Shown piece by piece: positions 15,639-26,454 of a stretch of 62,355 bases of DNA (the first letter of the stretch is position 1; each line of letters starts with the position of its first letter). Position numbers and translations under genes: made by a program. The notes beneath the pieces are model-generated. The model had not been told where the DNA came from. It ran no database searches and was given only the letters and a program-made list of their open reading frames with translations. Source of the DNA: a virus (taxonomy: Duplodnaviria > Caudoviricetes); IMG/VR virus record IMGVR_UViG_3300035156_000134, positions 1 through 62,355 of that record; one strand, given 5' to 3'.

Positions 15639-16238
15639 GTGGCGAAGACAAGATTGCTGGTGGCCATGCGGAACAGCATCCGCAAGAAGCTGATCGACCG
15701 GGCGTTCGATCACCGGGAGAAGGAGCTGAAGGATCGGCGCCCGATCATCGCCAAGATGGCGTACGAAGAGATCGTCACGCCCGAAGAGCAAAAGCGCATG
15801 GCGGCTTTGCCGCCAGAGTGGTTCCCATCTGGGAAACGCGTCGAGATCGAGGACCACGCGGATGATGACTACCGCGGCTATCAACGGGAGTGGATCCACT
15901 GGGACATGACTTGGGCTGAGCCGTATCCGTATGATCGGATTTTGAAGATCGGTGCTAAGAAGATGTCGGATGATCTGCTCCAGGCCGTCGAGGAACAGGT
16001 GGCAGCCGAGATCGAACTGGGCGAAACCAAGGCGGCCGCGGTGGCCTCCACCCAAGCGCTCCTGGACAGCTACAACTGGGTCGAAGATCTGGTCACAGGC
16101 TGGCCTGAGGCTGCGTCTGTGATCCATGAGGTGGTGACCACCGGTGGTGTCATGAGGGACCTGCCAGCTGTGACCAGCCTCAACTCACTGCTCGGCCTGC
16201 CGCCGGGTCAGGTCCGTCACGAACATCATAACGCATAA
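15639..16238 (+). CDS. Nucleotide modification-associated domain 5 (Nmad5)-like protein
   Basis: C-terminal L...WPEA...LP...LNSLLGLP pattern; GCTGAAGGAG RBS. Confidence 0.65.
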   Translation: MAKTRLLVAMRNSIRKKLIDRAFDHREKELKDRRPIIAKMAYEEIVTPEEQKRMAALPPEWFPSGKRVEIEDHADDDYRGYQREWIHWDMTWAEPYPYDRILKIGAKKMSDDLLQAVEEQVAAEIELGETKAAAVASTQALLDSYNWVEDLVTGWPEAASVIHEVVTTGGVMRDLPAVTSLNSLLGLPPGQVRHEHHNA

Positions 16239-19814: not shown

Positions 19815-20354
19815 ATGACCGGCACACAACTCTTTATCCTCGTTGCCCTGATTACCATTTTGGCAGGCGCCATGTTCTTGGCCGGCTGGCTTTGGCGGGC
19901 CATCAAGTATCCCGACATGATGACCGACATCGTCGACTTCCACGAAAAGTTCAAGCTCGAGTACGACGGCGGGCCCCGTATCATGCCTGACGACCTGTTT
20001 GACTTCCGCTTCAAGTTCATGCACGAGGAGCTGGCCGAGTATGCCGAAGAGCAGGAGCGCATCTCGCTCTACAACGCTGGCCCGATCCAGCCCATCAAGA
20101 TCGACCAATGCCTGGAGATGCAGCTCGACGCTCTGGTCGACCTCGTCTACGTCACACTCGGCACGGCGTACCTCCAGTTTGGCGGCAAGAATTTCAAGAT
20201 CGCCTGGAACCGGGTGCAGGAAGCCAACATGGCTAAGGTCCGGTGCGAACGGCCTGGCGACAGCAAGCGCGGATCCACGTTCGACGTCATCAAGCCGGCT
20301 GGCTGGACGGCACCGAGTCATATGGATCTGATCCAGCAGCGCCACGCTAGCTGA
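19815..20354 (+). CDS. MazG-like nucleoside triphosphate pyrophosphohydrolase
   Basis: FH.KF, EELAE, DALVDLVYV..G, V..ANMAK, KP.GW..P. Confidence 0.85.
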   Translation: MTGTQLFILVALITILAGAMFLAGWLWRAIKYPDMMTDIVDFHEKFKLEYDGGPRIMPDDLFDFRFKFMHEELAEYAEEQERISLYNAGPIQPIKIDQCLEMQLDALVDLVYVTLGTAYLQFGGKNFKIAWNRVQEANMAKVRCERPGDSKRGSTFDVIKPAGWTAPSHMDLIQQRHAS

Positions 20355-20363
20355 ACTCAACTA

Positions 20364-20409
20364 TGTACAAAGGCTGGGCTGTGCGATAGCCTGGCCTCTG
20401 CTGAAGGAG
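20364..20409 (+). promoter_or_regulatory. Phage promoter plus leader/RBS motif
   Basis: TGTACA-N17-TAGCCT; CTGCTGAAGGAG 20398-20409. Confidence 0.8.
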
Positions 20410-20415
20410 GATCCC

Positions 20416-21435
20416 ATGAAGACGTTTCTATTGAGCCCATTCTACCCGGTGGCAGACAAGCTGGACACCAGCCACCGAGCTGGCTGGGCGCGGTACTGGA
20501 CACGCGCCCTTGGCGAGGTGGAGGTCAAGCCGACCCTGCTGACGACGGCCACCATGCCCGCGCTGGATCAGGCCAAGAAGGGCGACATCATCTACTGTTA
20601 CCACGGCATGGAGTGGGGTGGCGCCATGAACCTGCAGTCCGGCCTGACGAACGAGATCATCGCCCGGGCCGATCGGCTGGTCGACGCTAAGAAGCGGGGC
20701 GTCAAGCTCGTCAGCCTCGATATCCCCATGCCGTCGTATGGCAAGCTGCTCGAGGCCCGAGGCTATGCCCGGTCCGAGCACCTGACGGCCGCACTCGCCA
20801 AGCAGGGGTACCTGAGGGTGCCAAACGAGCGAGCGGCACACGTGATCATGGGAGACAGCCACGCTCTCAGCCAATATGTGCCTGGCGCTGTGATCTACCG
20901 GACCGACGGCCAGACCCTCCACGGCGCCATGCTGGTCGGCCTCGAGAAGCGCCTGGAGAATTGGGCCTTCGAGACGGCGGTGGAGCTAGAGAGTTTGTCA
21001 AAGCTGACCTCGTACTTCGGCAACATCGACATCCGCCACCACATCTGTCGGCTGCCCGACCCGGGCAAAGCTATCAAGGACCTGATCGACGAATACGGCA
21101 AACAGCTGAACTCGATCCGTAACTCTAACAACATCTCTGAAATTGAGGTGGTCCTGCCGCTCCACATCGAGAGCGAGGACCGCGTGCTGCCCAAGACGGG
21201 CTGGTATAAGGGGACACCGTTCTTCGGCACGTGGAGCGAGCGGCATCAGGTCAAGATCGCGATGATGACCCGGATCAAGGCCATGGCCAAGAAGCACGGG
21301 TTCGCGGTGGTCGACCATCCGAAGCACTTCCTCATGCGGAATGGGCAGCTCGACTTCGCCGTGATGGAGACTCCTCGGTCCGTCCACATCCGGCCGTCCG
21401 AGTATCGCCTCATCCAGGAGGGCATGACATGGTGA
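20416..21435 (+). CDS. SGNH/GDSL-fold protein (putative acyltransferase/esterase) of DNA-modification cluster
   Basis: GDSH, G.TL.G, FGNID, SVH blocks in SGNH order. Confidence 0.6.
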   Translation: MKTFLLSPFYPVADKLDTSHRAGWARYWTRALGEVEVKPTLLTTATMPALDQAKKGDIIYCYHGMEWGGAMNLQSGLTNEIIARADRLVDAKKRGVKLVSLDIPMPSYGKLLEARGYARSEHLTAALAKQGYLRVPNERAAHVIMGDSHALSQYVPGAVIYRTDGQTLHGAMLVGLEKRLENWAFETAVELESLSKLTSYFGNIDIRHHICRLPDPGKAIKDLIDEYGKQLNSIRNSNNISEIEVVLPLHIESEDRVLPKTGWYKGTPFFGTWSERHQVKIAMMTRIKAMAKKHGFAVVDHPKHFLMRNGQLDFAVMETPRSVHIRPSEYRLIQEGMTW

Positions 21436-22553
21436 CCGTGTCGCTGAAGTCCATCCGTGACATGATGTGCACCGCTGCTCGGAACGAAGGGATCTTACGG
21501 GACGAGAAGGGCTACCGCGCCAAGATCGTGGACGTGCGTCCCTTCGTGGAAGCGCACAACCGAGGATTGGTGTTCACACCGTACTTCGTCGAGGCTCTGC
21601 ACTATGTGGCCAAGGCGAAGAAGCTGCAGACAGCGTCGCTGGCTGGAAAGAAGGTGCCGAAGGTCGGGGACCCGCTGATGGAGGCCATCCCGATCTACAA
21701 CACGGTCGAGCGCCGCTATGCCGGGTTCAGCAATGTGCTCGAGCACCTCTGGTACGGGGTTGGAGCTCCGAAGTTTTTTCAGAATAGCGCGGCGGGCCGG
21801 CTGCAACCGCTGGTGCATTGGCAGCACCTCGGCAGTGGTAAGAAGCTGGAGGAGTGGCTTTACATTACGTTGGTTCACCGACTGACAGGTAGTGGTGCTA
21901 GCTTCGAGAGTGATCACGGGTGGCGGAACAACCGGGTGGCTGAGATGGCACACCTCGGGGCGCTGGCCAGCATGGCCAAGTTCATCCGCTATTATCCTGA
22001 GCCGATCTTCACGTCGATCGGGAACCAGATCCCGCCGTTCCCACCGATGGGTGGGCGCGCATATCTGCAGGACGTGGCACCGGAGTTCGTGATGCGTGTG
22101 GCTGACGTGCTTCGTGGCGTGGCGATCATCAACAAAGCGCCGATGGGGATCAAGCTGGCTGTCGACACCGTGCTTGGCATCCACAAGACGATGGGCTACA
22201 AGCAGTTCAAGTTCGTCTTCACGGCCTGGGTCATGGACATGGCCGAGTATCTGCCGCACCTGGTGGACCCCAACAGCGATTGTTACCACGGCAAGAACGC
22301 CATCGAGAGCATGAACATCTGCTTTGACCGGCTGCCGACCATGAAGCTTCAGGACTTCTACGACACGGCTACGCGCCTCTTCGCCGACCTCACTGGCACG
22401 AAGCCGATGGACGTGGAGGACGCCAGCCCGGGCTGTGACCTGGTCCGATGGATCGAGAACTACGTCCCCAAGAAGGGCTTCGACCATGTGCTTGAGCAGG
22501 GAGTCTACAACGGCAGCAGTCTCCGGTGGCACGCGGGCAGACAGCCTCAATAG
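21429..22553 (+). CDS. Unknown protein, candidate DNA base transferase
   Basis: 374 aa; position between SGNH and PLP genes; family assignment not secure. Confidence 0.45.
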   Translation: MVTVSLKSIRDMMCTAARNEGILRDEKGYRAKIVDVRPFVEAHNRGLVFTPYFVEALHYVAKAKKLQTASLAGKKVPKVGDPLMEAIPIYNTVERRYAGFSNVLEHLWYGVGAPKFFQNSAAGRLQPLVHWQHLGSGKKLEEWLYITLVHRLTGSGASFESDHGWRNNRVAEMAHLGALASMAKFIRYYPEPIFTSIGNQIPPFPPMGGRAYLQDVAPEFVMRVADVLRGVAIINKAPMGIKLAVDTVLGIHKTMGYKQFKFVFTAWVMDMAEYLPHLVDPNSDCYHGKNAIESMNICFDRLPTMKLQDFYDTATRLFADLTGTKPMDVEDASPGCDLVRWIENYVPKKGFDHVLEQGVYNGSSLRWHAGRQPQ

Positions 22554-22557
22554 ACCA

Positions 22558-22602
22558 TGTACAGCCGCGTGTGGGCATCGTAAGCCAGACCCGCTGAAGG
22601 AG
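22558..22602 (+). promoter_or_regulatory. Phage promoter plus leader/RBS motif
   Basis: TGTACA-N17-TAAGCC; CCGCTGAAGGAG 22591-22602. Confidence 0.8.
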
Positions 22603-22607
22603 ACACC

Positions 22608-23513
22608 ATGTCACACGACACCCATACCAACGACCGCTCGTTCCTCGAGCTCAACCACGGCGCCACCGTCGAGACCTACCGCCAGATGGCGAAGGGTTGG
22701 AAGGACCCGTTTCCGCTCCCCACCATAGCCAAGGTCGGCCTCGATGCCGAGCGAAGCGTGCTCGTAGTCCGAGACGACTTGTCCGAGCTCGGCAGCAAGG
22801 CTCGCTTTGGCAGCCTGCTGGTTCAACGCATGAAGGAGGACACCATTGTCTATGTCGCACCTCGAGTCGGTTGGGCACCGATCAGCCTCGCCAAGCTCTG
22901 CAAGATGTATGGCAAACGGCTCATCCTATTTGCCCCAGCTTCAAAGGATGCGTCAGATCATCAGCGGGTGGCCGTTGAGCTCGGCGGCGAGATGCGCTTC
23001 GCTCGCATCGCAGCCATGCCAGTGCTTCAGCTGCAGGCGAAGGCATTTGCTGAGAAGCACGGCTATCTCTTCGCCCCACTTGGTCTTCGTCATCCCCTGG
23101 TCACAGCGGCGATTGTGGCCACTGCAGACAAGCTCGCGAAGAGGATGGGGTCACCGCCTGCCGAAGTCTGGTCCGCCATGTCAACTGGAGTTTTGGGACG
23201 AGGACTCCAACTGGCCTGGCCTGACGCAGAGTACCACGGCGTTGCGGTTGCTCGGAATATCAAAGCGGGTGAACGTGGTCGAGCTATAATTCACAGCCAC
23301 CCGATGGCGTTCCTGCAGGACGAGAAGAAAGAGTTTCGGCCGCCCTTCCCGTCTGCGTCGAACTACGACGCCAAGGTCTGGAGGTTCATGCAGGACCACG
23401 CACAGGACGGCGCCCTGTTCTGGAACGTAGCCGGCGAAATTCAGCCGACCAAGCCCAACAAGCTCAAGTCCGACGTCGCATGGGGCGATGCTTCGGCCTT
23501 CAAGAGGAAGTAA
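22608..23513 (+). CDS. PLP-dependent enzyme, fold type II (TrpB/cysteine-synthase-like)
   Basis: VRDD..GSKAR lysine motif, W.AMSTGVL..GL, YDAK.W, LFWNV. Confidence 0.75.
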   Translation: MSHDTHTNDRSFLELNHGATVETYRQMAKGWKDPFPLPTIAKVGLDAERSVLVVRDDLSELGSKARFGSLLVQRMKEDTIVYVAPRVGWAPISLAKLCKMYGKRLILFAPASKDASDHQRVAVELGGEMRFARIAAMPVLQLQAKAFAEKHGYLFAPLGLRHPLVTAAIVATADKLAKRMGSPPAEVWSAMSTGVLGRGLQLAWPDAEYHGVAVARNIKAGERGRAIIHSHPMAFLQDEKKEFRPPFPSASNYDAKVWRFMQDHAQDGALFWNVAGEIQPTKPNKLKSDVAWGDASAFKRK

Positions 23514-23514
23514 C

Positions 23515-24465
23515 ATGGCCGACAGAGTCAAACGCATCATCATTCTTGAGGGGCCAGATTGCGCGGGCAAGACCACGCTGGCCCGAGAGCTTAGTGACAG
23601 GTACGGTAGCGAGATGGCCGTCATCCACCAAGGACCGTTCCCTCGAGTGACTGCAGCGCAGCTGCCTCGGTTCTACGTCGAGAGCATGATGCCCGCCATC
23701 AACAACTACACTGGCCTGATCATGGATCGCAGCTGGTTGTCGGAGCCAATCTACGGCAGCGCCTTCCGGGGTGGGACTAACCGCATCAGCGATGTGGCCA
23801 GGCGCCACCTCGAGCGGATCGCCATGCGGCACGGCGCCGTGGTCGTGCTGTGTCTCCCGCCGTGGGAGGCAGTGGCGACCGAGTGGAAGAAGCGGAAGGG
23901 CTTCGACCCGAAGGCCGAGATGCTGGAAGGCCTCGACCAGCTCGAACATGTCTACCAAGGCTACGAGCGGCTGCATCTCGACACGGACCTCCCGGTGGTG
24001 CGCTACAACTACAAGATGCACGGCAGCCAGAACGGGATCATCCGCAGCCAGCTCGAACGGATCGGGGCCCCGCTGCATGAGCTGAGGTCTCGGATGGTCG
24101 GCGACTTGGATGCCCAGGTGATCTTGGTCGGCGAGAAGGCCAGTGACCACACTGACGCTGACGCACTCCGCCAATTCCCGTTCTGTTCATTCAGCAAGCA
24201 GGGCTCCAGCGCATGGTTGACCGAGCAGCTGTGGAAGGCCGACATCTCCGAGCAGGCGCTGCTGTGGCTGAACGCTTCGGACGGTGTCCACCAGATCAAG
24301 GACCTCTACGCCAGACCCACGATTGCGCTCGGCCAAGCTGCGTCCGATGCTTTGACGGCTCTGGGTATCCCGCATGAGATGGTGGCACATCCGCAGTATC
24401 ACAAACGTTTCACCCCAGGGATCGAGTATCCGCTGATCCCGCTGATCAAGTCCCATCTCAAGTAA
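23515..24465 (+). CDS. dNMP kinase fused to a UDG-like C-terminal domain
   Basis: EGPDCAGKTT, DRSWLSEPIYG; then ILVGE..PF..IALG..A..HPQY. Confidence 0.75.
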   Translation: MADRVKRIIILEGPDCAGKTTLARELSDRYGSEMAVIHQGPFPRVTAAQLPRFYVESMMPAINNYTGLIMDRSWLSEPIYGSAFRGGTNRISDVARRHLERIAMRHGAVVVLCLPPWEAVATEWKKRKGFDPKAEMLEGLDQLEHVYQGYERLHLDTDLPVVRYNYKMHGSQNGIIRSQLERIGAPLHELRSRMVGDLDAQVILVGEKASDHTDADALRQFPFCSFSKQGSSAWLTEQLWKADISEQALLWLNASDGVHQIKDLYARPTIALGQAASDALTALGIPHEMVAHPQYHKRFTPGIEYPLIPLIKSHLK

Positions 24466-24477
24466 AGGAACCAGACT

Positions 24478-25299
24478 ATGCAGACCCTCAATAACGCCTG
24501 GTGGGAACAGCTAGCGTTCGTCATGGCTGGAGGCCGTCAGACCAGCCCGCGGGGCCAGCTGACACTGGAGGTGCCGTCCAGAACTCTGAGCTTCGACATG
24601 AACTACCCCGTCGTGGTCCAGCCACTTCGGAAGCTCGGCTACAAGTTCATGGCGGCCGAGGCATGGTGGATCCTGTCAGGCCGGGACGACGTCGACGCCA
24701 TCGCGCCGTACAGCAAGGACATCAGCAAGTTCAGTGACGACGGCCACAAGTTCTACGGCGCCTACGGGCCGAGGATCGTGGCGCAGCTCGACTACGTCGT
24801 CAATGCTCTGCTGTCGGACCCAGACACTCGACAGTCGGTGCTGACCACTTGGCGGCAGAACCCCACCCGCTCGAAGGATGTGCCGTGCACTGTCGCCTTC
24901 AGCTGGATGATCCGGGACGGCGCCTTGGAGTGCCACGTGTTCATGCGGTCGAGTGACAACTGGCTGGGCATTCCGTACGACGCGTTCAACTTCAGCATGC
25001 TGTCGGCCGAGATTGCCCGTCAACTGAACCAGCACCCGCTCCTCCACGGCGTGCCGATCAAGCTCGGTGACTGTCACCTGACGGCCGCGTCGAGCCACAT
25101 CTACCAGCGCAACTTCGATGATGTGCTGGCCGTGCTGAACACAGCTCCGGTCCGGAACAACGGTGTGCCTGTGCCAGTGTCGCTCTACAACCCGGAGGAG
25201 ATGATGCCTTCATACGGGCGGTGGACCAGCGTAGCGGCGTTCCTCGATATCCTCAAGGACACGAAGGCCGGTCACGAGCTTCGCTGGTGGGAACAGTGA
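24478..25299 (+). CDS. Thymidylate-synthase homologue, probable dCMP C5-modifying enzyme (hydroxymethylase-type)
   Basis: GAYGPR, DVPC, MRSSD..LGIPYD (Asp where ThyA has Asn177), HIY. Confidence 0.8.
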   Translation: MQTLNNAWWEQLAFVMAGGRQTSPRGQLTLEVPSRTLSFDMNYPVVVQPLRKLGYKFMAAEAWWILSGRDDVDAIAPYSKDISKFSDDGHKFYGAYGPRIVAQLDYVVNALLSDPDTRQSVLTTWRQNPTRSKDVPCTVAFSWMIRDGALECHVFMRSSDNWLGIPYDAFNFSMLSAEIARQLNQHPLLHGVPIKLGDCHLTAASSHIYQRNFDDVLAVLNTAPVRNNGVPVPVSLYNPEEMMPSYGRWTSVAAFLDILKDTKAGHELRWWEQ

Positions 25300-25823
25300 A
25301 CACGAAGCGGCTGAGTAGGGAGGCCTGGGCAATGGAGGTTGCCCGGGTCACTGCCAAACGGGCCTCATGCCTCCGCCGCGCAGTCGGCTGTGTGCTGCTG
25401 GACTCGGACGGCTTTATTCTGTCCACCGGCTACAACGGTGTCGCTGCGGGCCAGCCACATTGCAATCGGCAAGCCCAAGACACGTGGCCAGATGGCGATC
25501 CGTTAGGCCCGGTGCAGTATCCGTCGGCTTGCCCCGGCGCTTTCGCCCAGAGCGGCACGAACCTAGATGGTTGCCATGCCATCCACGCCGAGCAGAACGC
25601 GCTCCTACGGTGTGCCGACGTCCGCAGGATCCACAGCTGCTTTGTCACCGCCAGCCCGTGCATGACCTGCACGAAGCTGCTGATGAACACGTCGTGTGAA
25701 CGGATCATCTTCGACCAACCTTATCCGCACAGCGAGGCTGAGCTGCTGTGGATTAACGTCCGGCCAGCTCGCCGCTGGCTCAGCTTCGCAGATTACATGG
25801 AGAACGAAGATGCAGATAGTTAA
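25296..25823 (+). CDS. dCMP deaminase
   Basis: C.RR.VG, TGYNG, HAEQNA, SPCMTC. Confidence 0.93.
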   Translation: MNTKRLSREAWAMEVARVTAKRASCLRRAVGCVLLDSDGFILSTGYNGVAAGQPHCNRQAQDTWPDGDPLGPVQYPSACPGAFAQSGTNLDGCHAIHAEQNALLRCADVRRIHSCFVTASPCMTCTKLLMNTSCERIIFDQPYPHSEAELLWINVRPARRWLSFADYMENEDADS

Positions 25824-26454
25824 TGCCTCCACCGTCGACTTCGTCGACAAGCTCGGGACCGACCTGACCGTGGTTAATGCGGCTCGCGTGTCGTTTGACA
25901 AGCACGTCGACCACATGGAGCTCGGCGACGTCAAACTGCTAGGCTACCTCGGTAAGCACGGCCACTGGTCGCCGTTCGCCCATGCGCAGGTGCAGCTGCG
26001 GATCACGGCCCCGATCTTCGTAGCGCGTCAGCTCGTCAAGCATCAGATCGGCTTGGTCTGGAACGAGGTCAGCCGCCGCTACGTCAGCGATGAACCGACC
26101 TACTTCCTGCCGACCGTGTGGCGAGGCAAGCCGATCAACGGCGCTAAGCAGGGCAGCTCGGGCGAAGTCATCCTGCCGCAGGATTTGATCGACGCAGCGG
26201 ACAAGCTGATGAGCGACTCGATCGACGTCTACCAGGCCTATATGGACTGCGGCGTGGCGCCTGAGCAGGCTCGCATGTTCCTGCTGCAGAACATGATGAC
26301 GTCGTGGTACTGGACGGGCTCGCTCTATGCGTGCGCCCGGGTGTGCCATTTGCGGCTGGATGCCCATGCACAGGGCGAGTCGACCGATGTGGCGAAGGAG
26401 ATTGACAGGATCTGCCGAGAGCACTTCCCACATGCGTGGGCAGCTCTGATCTAG
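25810..26454 (+). CDS. thyX: Flavin-dependent thymidylate synthase
   Basis: VNAARVSF, HWSPF, APIFVARQLVKH, NEVSRRY, APEQARM. Confidence 0.93.
   Translation: MQIVNASTVDFVDKLGTDLTVVNAARVSFDKHVDHMELGDVKLLGYLGKHGHWSPFAHAQVQLRITAPIFVARQLVKHQIGLVWNEVSRRYVSDEPTYFLPTVWRGKPINGAKQGSSGEVILPQDLIDAADKLMSDSIDVYQAYMDCGVAPEQARMFLLQNMMTSWYWTGSLYACARVCHLRLDAHAQGESTDVAKEIDRICREHFPHAWAALI

Follow-up and report, generated by a model that had tools for sequence, protein, structure and literature searches.

The window analysed is the whole 62,355-nt genome of a complete, uncultured phage of siphovirus type. The eight genes that an initial annotation had read as a single run from MazG to ThyX were all recovered, together with their families, by Pfam, PHROG or structural modelling. 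All lie on the plus strand, at or close to their initially annotated positions:

19815..20354, + strand: MazG-like all-alpha NTP pyrophosphohydrolase (PF01503, 27.4 bits against a cut-off of 21.3; phrog_671, 4.7e-20)
20416..21435, + strand: 339-aa SGNH-fold protein (phrog_13881; AlphaFold model)
21429..22553, + strand: 374-aa all-alpha protein, helix-hairpin-helix (HhH)-glycosylase-like (predicted structure)
22608..23513, + strand: fold-type II PLP enzyme of the M6 gp52/phrog_7093 family (PF00291, 30 bits, below the Pfam cut-off of 35; phrog_7093, 4.9e-42)
23488..24465 (ORF; likely start 23515), + strand: P-loop dNMP-kinase-like protein fused to a UDG-superfamily-like domain (phrog_761 'thymidylate kinase', 2.8e-18)
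24478..25299, + strand: thymidylate synthase (TS) homologue with a dCMP hydroxymethylase signature (PF00303, 72.5 bits)
25296..25823 (start GTG 25296 or ATG 25332), + strand: dCMP deaminase (PF00383, 61.2 bits; phrog_174, 3.8e-30)
25810..26454, + strand: ThyX, flavin-dependent thymidylate synthase (PF02511, 137.5 bits; phrog_85, 7e-60)

Residues 1-30 of the MazG-like protein are hydrophobic, so its true start may be near 19914. In the kinase fusion, the kinase domain covers residues ~15-181 of the ORF and the UDG-like C-terminal domain residues ~185-325; a structural comparison in Atlas matched the C-terminal part to UDG clusters at TM 0.75 and 0.70, with a feature score of 0.88, which we treat as a lead only.

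The TS homologue and the presumed pre-replicative enzymes

The best PDB relative of the TS homologue was MilA, a CMP 5-hydroxymethylase (3.2e-19). Its motif KDVPCT places an Asp at Cys-3 (position 143) ahead of Cys146, and the segment RSSDNWLGIPYD, present in the translation, contributes Asp169 and Asp177. In alignments, the last Asp of this segment fell opposite an Asp in MilA and an Asn in canonical TS, the same being seen against 44RR td, and at the level of signature this bears out the earlier proposal that the enzyme is of the dCMP type at position 177. According to an excerpt of one study (PMC13326640), the combination Asp143/Cys146/Asp169/Asp177 denotes a cytosine substrate and a hydroxymethyl, not a 5-hydroxy, product, and Asp at 143 counts against a methyl product. 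As controls for the signature, Asn177 was read in M6 gp58, from an hmU phage, together with Asp143, and in 44RR td together with Leu143; the 44RR gene-42 homologue reads Asp/Asp/Asp and so matches the present enzyme. Modified-cytosine metagenome contigs have likewise been associated with Asp177 in the main text of the MetaGPA study (PMC8670742). These results support the assignment of the TS homologue, by signature, as a putative cytosine-type hydroxymethylase (5hm-dCMP synthase) and not as an enzyme of the dUMP, methyl or 5-hydroxy type; judged from characterised homologues, its product would yield 5-hydroxymethylcytosine (5hmC).

ThyX makes dTMP, leaving the TS homologue dispensable for this purpose, and the deaminase would supply ThyX with dUMP; the domain matches of both genes agree with the initial view that they stand apart from the TS homologue. 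The MazG-like protein would deplete dCTP to dCMP, as T4 gp56 does, and the P-loop kinase is probably a 5hm-dCMP kinase.

These four enzyme classes and their pre-replicative logic are shared with the T4-type pathway, which comprises the gp42 dCMP hydroxymethylase, gp1 kinase, gp56 dCTPase and cd deaminase together with glucosyltransferases. Unlike the T4 type, the present phage has a siphovirus-type 62-kb genome, carries ThyX in place of ThyA and has SGNH, HhH-like and PLP tailoring genes; the initial annotation had noted no glycosyltransferase, and a search of the six-frame translation of the entire genome for three glycosyltransferase families (PF00535, PF00534 and PF09198; E<=1) gave no match. 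The 5-hydroxy-dCMP synthases of RB69, DLP3 and RL38JI, whose products are arabinosylated or glycosylated, also combine Asp177 with an acidic residue at 143 and give a hydroxylated cytosine to which groups are transferred later; they differ in having Asn169 (Asp169 here) and glycosyltransferases for tailoring.

In AXL3, a cultured relative that infects Stenotrophomonas, and in Pseudoxanthomonas phage PW916, the MazG, kinase fusion, TS and deaminase genes are syntenic with those described here. Identities to AXL3 were 38% for the MazG-like protein (gp30), 39% for the kinase fusion (gp29; 321 residues, from 23524) and 56% for the deaminase (gp27), and the TS proteins of both phages share 46-49% identity and the same signature with the present one. 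PW916 is classified in Mesyanzhinovviridae, the family of M6. In both phages a SAM-dependent methyltransferase gene, of which the present genome has no homologue, adjoins MazG, and both are without the SGNH, 374-aa and PLP genes, indicating that the core works alone. In the portion of the AXL3 report considered (PMC7504290), the DNA resisted 35 of 37 restriction enzymes; all 35 have G or C in their sites, and the two cutters have A/T-only sites. Such resistance would also fit 5mC or a modification of G.

A three-gene module conserved across viral loci

The SGNH, 374-aa and PLP (PALP) genes, which lie between the MazG and kinase genes, form a conserved three-gene module. We found the 374-aa gene in 80 viral loci, which group into 18 clusters when its protein is clustered at 70% identity; with this recurrence, the arrangement is not a matter of chance. 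SGNH and PALP genes each accompanied it in 77/80 loci; contig ends account for the position of every PALP miss (three) and of two SGNH misses, and at L040, the remaining SGNH miss, there are 1,546 bases upstream and the gene order differs. When all three genes were present, they lay within 4.5 kb of sequence in 73 of 74 loci. A neighbouring TS homologue was seen in 56/80 loci, with Asp-Cys-Asp-Asp in 55 and a truncated sequence in the remaining one, and four of five contigs with no TS nearby encoded one elsewhere, again with Asp-Cys-Asp-Asp (4/4). This linkage to a cytosine-type TS extended across 10 clusters at 50% identity, the kinase gene was always between the PLP and TS genes, and all clades had the module embedded in the nucleotide cassette. 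In a marine clade, a dUTPase_2 protein (PF08761) occupies the MazG place and a 147-aa kinase stands alone, free of the UDG-like domain. SGNH-374 fusions were detected in eight of the nine long (494-790 aa) cluster representatives tested and in L047, corresponding to at least nine lineages.

The 339-aa protein had no Pfam match. Its AlphaFold model (pLDDT 93.7) consists of an N-terminal alpha/beta domain (residues ~1-135) and an SGNH-fold catalytic domain (~136-337), for which Foldseek returned sialate O-acetylesterases and GDSL lipases (E 1e-5, prob 1.0) and VIA a match of Z 13.8 (rmsd 3.7, 175 aligned), confirming the SGNH call made from the sequence. Residues G146-D147-S148-H149, G170, G202-N203 and H324 were invariant in 45 sequences, including all four SGNH catalytic residues (Ser, Gly, Asn, His). 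SGNH enzymes are usually hydrolases, a point against the activating role proposed below; this one would be an esterase or acyltransferase working on 5hmC in DNA jointly with the 374-aa product.

The 339-aa and 374-aa genes overlap by 7 bases (stop of the former, start of the latter). The protein had no match in three libraries (Pfam, PHROG and NCBIfam) and belongs to a family of 224 homologues, nearly all metagenomic (169 representatives at 50% identity). Its model (pLDDT 91.8) has an HhH DNA-glycosylase-like fold, and the top match in a wide VIA search was 8z2m_A, PaMx11 gp46 (Z 9.3, rmsd 4.2, 210 aligned), a value below the Z of ~13 needed before a resemblance between helical folds can be taken as more than chance. 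PaMx11 gp46 is a DNA-bound, base-flipping amino-acid:DNA transferase (ADDT), whose own best glycosylase matches are at ~Z 6 (PMC11472151). The next matches were HhH-GPD glycosylases and DUF2419 (Z 5.2-7.5); DUF2419, a queuosine nucleoside hydrolase, ranked second (Z 7.5), and its substrate is a nucleoside, not DNA, which counts against a DNA-level role. The initial annotation had proposed an unknown transferase here: the predicted fold agrees with an amino-acid:DNA transferase, and it is by fold alone that the model would tie the protein to the ADDT family. At the sequence level, a genome search with the ADDT HMM PF18724 found nothing at E<=10, and hhalign of the two family profiles gave a probability of 1.7%. 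The Foldseek check suggested for both genes recovered the SGNH fold for 20416-21435 and nothing at E<=0.001 for 21429-22553. E330, D331, C336, D337 and R340 are invariant in the family, the Cys being within an acidic cluster, and the many invariant polar residues together with this Cys suggest catalysis; an active-site thiolate has been proposed for ADDT enzymes. The protein may flip the base out and transfer a group at the cytosine 5-methylene.

The PLP enzyme falls in phrog_7093, as does M6 gp52 (2.2e-159). Alignment of its family profile (A3) with gp52 by hhalign gave a probability of 96.9% (E 2e-10, 218 columns) and placed K64, the Schiff-base Lys, invariant in 24 sequences, on gp52 K36, so the suspected tie to thymidine hypermodification stands on profile-level homology. 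M6 gp52 and ViI gp226 are described as proven decarboxylases of DNA-borne amino acids in the section consulted of PMC8989533, and by analogy the PLP enzyme could remove the carboxyl group of an amino acid borne by the base. Searched against the PDB, its profile found cysteine synthases (best E 1.2e-5); the nearest solved relatives by sequence are beta-replacement enzymes, not decarboxylases.

Part of the module also occurs in a second 5hmC setting, that of Aeromonas phages 44RR, 31 and 25, which have genes 42 and 56 and no glucosyltransferase (PMC2993671). These phages carry an SGNH fusion protein (in 44RR, the N-terminal third of ORF233c is homologous to the 339-aa protein), in which the SGNH domain is joined to a helical region differing from the 374-aa family, with weak, sub-threshold matches to PF18723 HMUDK_hel (E 0.0036) and phrog_2396, the M6 gp55 family (E 0.0014). 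A PALP gene was not detected in them, indicating that SGNH can work without PALP.

A candidate two-stage pathway and its alternatives

We consider it reasonably probable that the cassette replaces cytosine with 5hmC and then hypermodifies it with an amino-acid-derived group. The initial annotation had inferred replacement of C by a 5-substituted C followed by such a decoration, and every part of this that could be examined in silico held up. In the first, T4-like stage, before replication, MazG would lower dCTP, the TS homologue would convert dCMP to 5-hydroxymethyl-dCMP, the P-loop kinase would form the diphosphate and host enzymes would complete the triphosphate, for the phage family-A polymerase to build 5hmC in for C, with the deaminase and ThyX keeping up the dTTP supply. 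In the second stage, on DNA and parallel to thymidine hypermodification in M6, ViI and PaMx11, the SGNH and 374-aa proteins would act as one unit on flipped-out 5hmC. The former would esterify the hydroxymethyl group, the latter would swap this leaving group for an amino acid via Cys336, and the gp52-type PLP enzyme would decarboxylate it, giving an amine-bearing C5 side chain. The gene families, signature residues, synteny and fusions beneath this scheme are direct readings of the sequences, and characterised homologues point to the 5hmC product and the decarboxylation; activation by SGNH, the sequence of steps and the choice of amino acid are purely what we infer.

The M6, ViI and PaMx11 pathways use a dUMP hydroxymethylase, 5-HMUDK, ADDT/aGPT-Pplase2 and a PLP decarboxylase. 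They share with the present cassette a TS-family hydroxymethylase that feeds a hydroxymethyl pyrimidine into DNA, a homologous PLP enzyme (phrog_7093) and a glycosylase-like helical protein, here nearest to the PaMx11 gp46 fold; in some thymidine systems the enzymes for activation and transfer form a single fused protein, as in the SGNH-374 fusions. Unlike in those systems, the base would be cytosine (Asp177) and not uracil, the 374-aa protein is a sequence family separate from ADDT, and profile searches found neither the P-loop DNA kinase (5-HMUDK, PF18748) nor HMUDK_hel, an SGNH-fold protein being present instead. The activating step is thus not accounted for by a known kinase type, and, as a guess, SGNH may provide it in place of the 5-hmdU-type kinase. 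Non-sugar decoration of 5hmC has a precedent in the 5-carbamoyloxymethylcytosine of MetaGPA, reached by metagenomic association with Asp177 TS homologues; there it is made by a carbamoyltransferase, unlike here, and the main text of that study (PMC8670742) does not contain the terms PALP, pyridoxal, SGNH, GDSL or aGPT. If true, the proposed pathway would be a cytosine counterpart of thymidine hypermodification, of which no description was found in the literature searched.

The recurrent SGNH-374 fusions would also suit a 5hmC O-acyltransferase leaving an ester mark (acetyl or aminoacyl) with no ADDT-type substitution, in which the role of the 374-aa protein is limited to base flipping, like that of HMUDK_hel beside the 5-hmdU kinase, and the PLP enzyme edits the esterified amino acid. 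The Aeromonas fusions to another helical region and the undetected PALP in those phages point the same way, as does Mom, in which the amino acid put on DNA comes from charged tRNA, where it is ester-bound (PMC13219725, in excerpt). We hold this to be unlikely, given the signs of catalysis in the 374-aa family, the lability of esters as a genome-wide mark and the free carboxylate that a decarboxylase homologue needs, which an alpha-carboxyl ester would presumably lack.

Rather unlikely, in our estimate, is a route in which the three module enzymes tailor the free nucleotide, be it 5hm-dCMP or a derivative, ahead of replication; the kinase would then activate the finished nucleotide and the polymerase incorporate a hypermodified dCTP analogue. 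The constant place of the kinase gene between the PLP and TS genes, the DUF2419 match and the absent DNA kinase favour it; nevertheless, a bulky charged side chain would need to be tolerated by polymerases and kinases alike, the best match by fold is to an enzyme that binds DNA and flips out the base, and the characterised relatives (ADDT, gp52, gp226) all act on DNA after replication.

AXL3 and PW916, with the core and no module, raise the question of whether the phage makes only 5hmC (or 5mC) and the three inserted genes have a purpose unrelated to the base, for instance in nucleotide salvage, host takeover or anti-defence, and the roles of all three module proteins do derive from comparison. 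We regard this as quite improbable in view of the strict linkage of the module to a cytosine-type TS, its position within the nucleotide cassette in every clade and the homology of the PLP enzyme to a DNA hypermodification enzyme, while Asp143 disfavours a methyl product.

Modification of thymidine via 5-hmdU, as in M6 and ViI, which the gp52 homology, the dCMP deaminase and the synteny with AXL3 and PW916 (the latter in Mesyanzhinovviridae) might suggest, is very improbable given the presence of ThyX, the lack of 5-HMUDK and ADDT HMM matches, the cutting of AXL3 DNA at A/T-only sites and Asp177 in 59/59 module-linked homologues read, where M6 gp58 has Asn.

A predicted 5-hydroxymethyl-dCMP synthase in a conserved cassette

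The thymidylate synthase (TS) homologue of the cassette (19815-26454, + strand) has the thymidylate synthase fold, matching PF00303 at 72.5 bits, and its closest solved structure was MilA, a CMP 5-hydroxymethylase (E = 3.2e-19). In the alignment, the cysteine of its KDVPCT motif fell on the catalytic cysteine of MilA and of canonical TS (Cys146 in the numbering of E. coli ThyA), and the final residue of RSSDNWLGIPYD fell on an aspartate of MilA and on the asparagine of S. aureus TS and of td from Aeromonas phage 44RR, which identifies it as Asp177. An acidic residue was also found at position 143, an aspartate three residues before the cysteine, as in MilA, M6 gp58 and the 44RR gene-42 homologue, with leucine in the canonical 44RR td; because MAFFT places a gap nearby, Asp143 was assigned by counting back from the cysteine. 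The complete signature in the window is Asp143, Cys146, Asp169, and Asp177.

The residue rules set out in PMC13326640 (2026) use this same ThyA numbering. There, catalysis depends on Cys146, an aspartate replacing Asn177 makes cytosine the substrate, an aspartate or glutamate replacing Leu143 accompanies a hydroxymethyl product instead of a methyl one, and an asparagine replacing Asp169 is the mark of 5-hydroxy-dCMP synthases. The controls behaved as expected, with Asp143 and Asn177 in gp58 of M6, a phage making hydroxymethyluracil (hmU), Leu143 and Asn177 in 44RR td, and aspartate at all three positions in the 44RR gene-42 homologue. Whereas the RB69 gp48-type 5-hydroxy-dCMP synthase has asparagine at position 169, the window and all the relatives read (59/59) have Asp169. 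The MetaGPA study associates Asp177 with contigs resistant to cytosine deamination (PMC8670742). Together, the signature residues, the MilA match, the controls, and the MetaGPA association lead us to predict that the TS homologue is a 5-hydroxymethyl-dCMP (5hm-dCMP) synthase, agreeing with dCMP hydroxymethylases in every sequence criterion.

The initial annotation had proposed a cytosine-type TS homologue, as is now borne out by Asp177 in alignment with the MilA aspartate and by Asp143 and Asp169; its argument for a separate dTMP supply also holds, genes for ThyX and a deaminase being present. Three other outcomes were rejected: an XP12-like 5mC product on account of the aspartate at position 143, 5hoC on account of Asp169, and a thymidine pathway on account of Asp177.

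The window is a complete virus record (62,355 bp; CheckV 100%) with a G+C content of 55-67%, in which the + strand carries the replication and nucleotide genes and the - strand the large structural-region ORFs. The replication region also encodes a family-A DNA polymerase, a ligase, a PD-(D/E)XK nuclease, and a helicase, and the window is syntenic with the cultured Stenotrophomonas phage AXL3 (protein identity 32-56%). All eight ORFs named initially were present and of the families named, the MazG-like pyrophosphohydrolase, TS homologue, dCMP deaminase, and ThyX each scoring above the Pfam cut-off. The reported absence of a glycosyltransferase was reproduced for three families, which gave no match in six frames of the whole genome at E ≤ 1. 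Megablast of the cassette DNA against 50,697 phage records returned no near-identical match. Consecutive genes of the cassette share 4-26 bases or directly adjoin, which suggests translational coupling within one operon:

21429-21435, + strand, overlapping or abutting cassette genes
23488-23513, + strand, overlapping or abutting cassette genes
25296-25299, + strand, overlapping or abutting cassette genes
25810-25823, + strand, overlapping or abutting cassette genes

The P-loop kinase matched phrog_761, and against the PDB the window kinase fusion gave matches at the P-loop level only. No 5-hmdU-type DNA kinase was detected by PF18748 in the genome at E ≤ 10, and PF18723 was absent among the cassette proteins at E ≤ 0.1. 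The kinase was rejected as a 5-hydroxymethyl-deoxyuridine DNA kinase (5-HMUDK), the short kinase being unlike M6 gp54 beyond the P-loop. The end of the kinase ORF resembled the UDG superfamily (Atlas TM 0.75 and 0.70, features 0.88), which we regard as a lead only:

24040-24465, + strand, UDG-superfamily-like domain, C-terminal ~140 residues of the kinase ORF

This domain is common to AXL3, PW916, and the closest relatives, and is missing in the 147-aa kinases of a recurring marine clade that carries the module.

Two further observations concern the surroundings of the cassette. A 199-aa protein (15639-16238, + strand) matched Nmad5 (PF18757, "nucleotide modification associated domain 5") at 35.7 bits (cut-off 27); its gene is flanked by those for the PD-(D/E)XK nuclease and for an Rv2179c-like exoribonuclease, with the cassette starting ~3.6 kb downstream, and the protein may be part of the modification system. 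The first ~30 residues of the MazG ORF (19815-19910, + strand) are strongly hydrophobic, and family matches start at residue 32-41, so that either translation really begins at a pair of internal Met residues near 19914 or the segment is a membrane anchor.

The SGNH, 374-aa, and PLP-enzyme genes

Three inserted genes form a module within the cassette: those for the SGNH protein (20416-21435), the 374-aa protein (21429-22553), and the PLP enzyme (22608-23513), all on the + strand. The model of the 339-aa SGNH protein (pLDDT 93.7) had an SGNH alpha/beta fold at residues ~136-337. Foldseek returned 67 matches at E ≤ 0.001, with GDSL esterases at the top (E = 1e-5, prob 1.0), and VIA gave Z scores of 13.8-9.9 among the 50 matches listed (best rmsd 3.7, 175 aligned residues). 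G146-D147-S148-H149, G170, G202-N203, and H324 were invariant in 45 homologues, providing the catalytic Ser148 in its GDSH block, the oxyanion residues Gly170 and Asn203, and the catalytic His324. Both the fold and the catalytic residues of SGNH enzymes are therefore present, in agreement with the initial assignment. The usual aspartate at His-3 is missing, and an invariant E318 lies close by. No Pfam family matched this protein at E ≤ 0.1, GDSL/SGNH models included, nor did any NCBIfam model. SGNH enzymes acting in DNA modification were not described in the literature searched (main text of open-access papers).

The 374-aa protein gave an all-alpha model (pLDDT 91.8) with no Pfam or NCBIfam match and no Foldseek match at E ≤ 0.001. 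In an exhaustive VIA comparison with 48,161 chains, the best match was 8z2m_A, PaMx11 gp46 (Z 9.3, rmsd 4.2, 210/287 residues), a Z score under the caution level for helical proteins; the next 11 matches (Z 7.5-5.2) were all HhH-GPD glycosylases or DUF2419. PaMx11 gp46 is a 5-phosphomethyl-dU glycinyltransferase of the amino-acid:DNA transferase (ADDT) family, whose own best matches among other folds reach about Z 6 (PMC11472151), and its two-bundle helical, glycosylase-like fold is present in the 374-aa model. By sequence, PF18724 (ADDT/aGPT-Pplase2) matched neither the 374-aa protein at E ≤ 0.1 nor anything in the genome at E ≤ 10. With hhalign, the family profile reached a probability of 1.7% against a 25-sequence ADDT alignment, 2.1% against M6 gp51, 0.2% against M6 gp55, and 0.2% against 44RR ORF233c; BLASTP against ORF233c was negative. 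Kinship with nicotinate-nucleotide adenylyltransferases, from a profile search of the PDB, was insignificant (E = 0.038-0.057) and was dismissed as chance.

Cys336 is invariant in the 374-aa family, as are Glu330, Asp331, Asp337, and Arg340 on either side of it. The family consensus is EDxxC, with two extra residues in the window, and the ADDT invariants include Glu243 and Cys247 (gp46 numbering), motifs that hhalign did not align. ADDT enzymes are thought to act through a thiolate (PMC8989533). The transferase suggested initially, to be sought as an aGPT-Pplase or HhH protein, thus stands as far as the gp46-like HhH fold is concerned, but not as a profile-level member of PF18724 or the ADDT family. 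Since the fold is ADDT-like but the ADDT sequence tests failed, we regard the 374-aa protein as belonging to a new family, which may act in an ADDT-like manner.

The PLP enzyme scored 30 bits against PALP (fold-type II), under the cut-off of 35, and matched phrog_7093 at 4.9e-42; its close homologues reached 40.6 and 46.3 bits against PALP. M6 gp52 (39.5 bits) belongs to the same PHROG (2.2e-159), and a 24-sequence profile of the window family aligned with gp52 over 218 columns (hhalign prob 96.9%, E = 2e-10). The invariant K64 was aligned with gp52 K36, the proposed Schiff-base lysine (PMC8989533), and a C-terminal PFPS..YDAK..FWNV block was common to both. The solved enzymes nearest to the family profile were cysteine synthases (E = 1.2e-5), which together with the PHROG match confirms the fold-II PLP enzyme of the initial annotation. 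These alignments place the PLP enzyme in the gp52 family. M6 gp52 and ViI gp226 decarboxylate amino acids already on thymine in DNA, as described in PMC8989533.

Distribution of the module and other 5hmC phages

The 374-aa family comprised 224 homologues in a word-indexed search and 169 representatives at 50% identity in an exhaustive search. Among 185,579 species genomes only four relatives were found, each on a MAG contig; a Gallionella one of 59,081 bp, similar in length to the window, is probably a phage contig binned with the MAG and a weak host hint at best. A tblastn search of the phage records with the 374-aa protein gave no hits at E ≤ 1e-3; none of the records in that collection was thus seen to carry the full module.

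IMG/VR yielded 281 candidate stretches, of which 238 were confirmed. Counts were made on the best 80 loci, whose 374-aa proteins group into 32 clusters at 90% identity, 18 at 70%, and 10 at 50%. The SGNH gene was present in 77/80 loci; two of the three misses had just 32 or 59 bases upstream, and the third (L040) had 1,546 bases upstream and another gene order. The PLP gene was likewise present in 77/80, all three misses having ≤153 bases downstream. All three genes occur in 74 loci, and in 73 of these they lie inside 4.5 kb. A TS homologue was found inside the locus in 56/80 by tblastn and 60/80 by clustering, and the Asp-Cys-Asp-Asp signature was read in 55 of the 56, the remaining one being truncated at the edge of the locus. 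On five contigs no TS lay nearby; four of them have it elsewhere, with the same signature (4/4), and the fifth contig is 82% complete. The largest recurring clade (~37-kb contigs) has the order deaminase, dUTPase_2-type pyrophosphatase, SGNH, 374-aa, PLP, 147-aa P-loop kinase, TS, and the entire seven-gene logic is therefore conserved beyond the version in the window.

The SGNH and 374-aa proteins were also found as one polypeptide. In the fusion locus L047, the SGNH frame continues without a stop via a charged linker into the 374-aa domain. Among nine long representatives (494-790 aa) from the exhaustive search, eight matched both the SGNH (E = 1e-70 to 1e-104) and the 374-aa profiles (E = 6e-18 to 2e-118), and one matched the 374-aa profile only. 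That the fusion recurs is an argument for joint action of the two proteins on one substrate.

The cultured phages AXL3 and PW916 have the same run of MazG, kinase fusion, TS, and deaminase genes and the same TS signature as the window, but lack the three inserted genes. Directly upstream of MazG they encode a SAM-dependent methyltransferase (Methyltransf_23, 2.2e-13; AXL3 gp31, L002:6644-7468; PW916, L001:934-1758) with no homologue in the window, which may provide a different tailoring of 5hmC. Of 37 restriction enzymes tried on AXL3 DNA, 35 were reported not to cut it; the exceptions were TasI and Tru1I, which have A/T-only sites (PMC7504290). This pattern fits global replacement of cytosine and does not by itself pin down the base. 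The PW916 paper contains no restriction data.

Aeromonas T4-like phages carry the SGNH family (6.9e-98) in fusion with another region, of 460 residues, which gave only weak, sub-threshold matches to HMUDK_hel (E = 0.0036) and the M6 gp55 PHROG (E = 0.0014). Phages 44RR, 31, and 25 have genes 42 and 56 and lack a glucosyltransferase (PMC2993671), and the fusion therefore places the SGNH family in a second, unrelated 5hmC context. In 44RR2.8t (ORF234c and ORF233c; L005:4408-8388), the 795-aa SGNH fusion adjoins a gene whose annotation likens it to sodium:solute symporters. Such a gene is unexpected next to a DNA-modifying enzyme and could be a sign that a small-molecule donor is imported.

A candidate route to amino-acid-derived cytosine

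In the most likely scheme, the first stage of the pathway would be T4-like: the pyrophosphatase would lower dCTP, the synthase would make 5hm-dCMP, the kinase would phosphorylate it, and the polymerase would incorporate the product, with dTTP supplied by ThyX and the deaminase. The second stage would parallel thymidine hypermodification. Homology of the PLP enzyme to gp52 points to an amino acid with free amine and carboxylate on the base, and the gp46-like fold of the 374-aa protein to a flipped-out base with transfer of a group at the C5 methylene. Because the genome lacks a 5-hmdU-type DNA kinase, we infer that the SGNH protein might esterify the hydroxymethyl group, making a carboxylate instead of a phosphate the leaving group.

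We consider it possible, if rather unlikely, that uncultured phages of 18 lineages (70% identity clusters), with a 62-kb genome here and recurring ~37-kb contigs elsewhere, carry a new base in which 5hmC is turned into an amine-bearing, amino-acid-derived cytosine such as aminoethoxymethyl- or aminoethyl-cytosine. Activation would proceed by SGNH esterification and not phosphorylation, via a two-domain SGNH and glycosylase-like enzyme, and this SGNH unit would also account for what becomes of 5hmC in Aeromonas phages 44RR, 31, and 25. Alternatively, the ester itself could be the final mark. The module enzymes could also act on free nucleotides, as the resemblance of the 374-aa fold to the nucleoside hydrolase DUF2419 would allow, although gp46 is its best structural match. 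A module function unrelated to the base is a third alternative, to be set beside the recurrence of the Asp-Cys-Asp-Asp synthase in the module loci.

In the literature searched (main text of open-access papers), phage cytosine is described as bearing sugars or a carbamoyl group, and thymine alone as bearing amino-acid-derived side chains; no amino-acid-type hypermodification of cytosine was found there. The pathway logic is known for thymine; if the reading as an amine-bearing cytosine is right, what would be new is the base, together with the activating component and one enzyme family. The cassette thus predicts the missing cytosine counterpart and offers three new enzyme families to test. SGNH esterification would be a new way to activate a DNA base for substitution, and the literature searched offers no earlier case, in DNA modification, of an SGNH protein coupled to a base-flipping domain. 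Because the module is widespread (169 clusters of the 374-aa family at 50% identity, 238 confirmed viral stretches), it bears on how much phage DNA in the environment goes unseen or is skewed when sequenced, and on how phages resist restriction and CRISPR. The modified bases of the cultured phages AXL3, PW916, and Aeromonas 44RR, 31, and 25 could be identified straight away, and new DNA enzymes tailoring 5hmC would be useful as epigenetic labelling tools.

The nearest PALP relatives in phage records were found in Erythrobacter phage vB_EliS_R6L (gp1, L006) and Microcystis phage Mae-JY30 (L007:7114-8705), with 34-37% identity. R6L gp1 has the PALP domain fused to an N6_N4 DNA methylase domain, and the Mae-JY30 gene lies downstream of ParB-like and methylase genes. 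Neither phage has the SGNH or the 374-aa gene, and these PALP genes may serve a separate PLP-dependent DNA modification.
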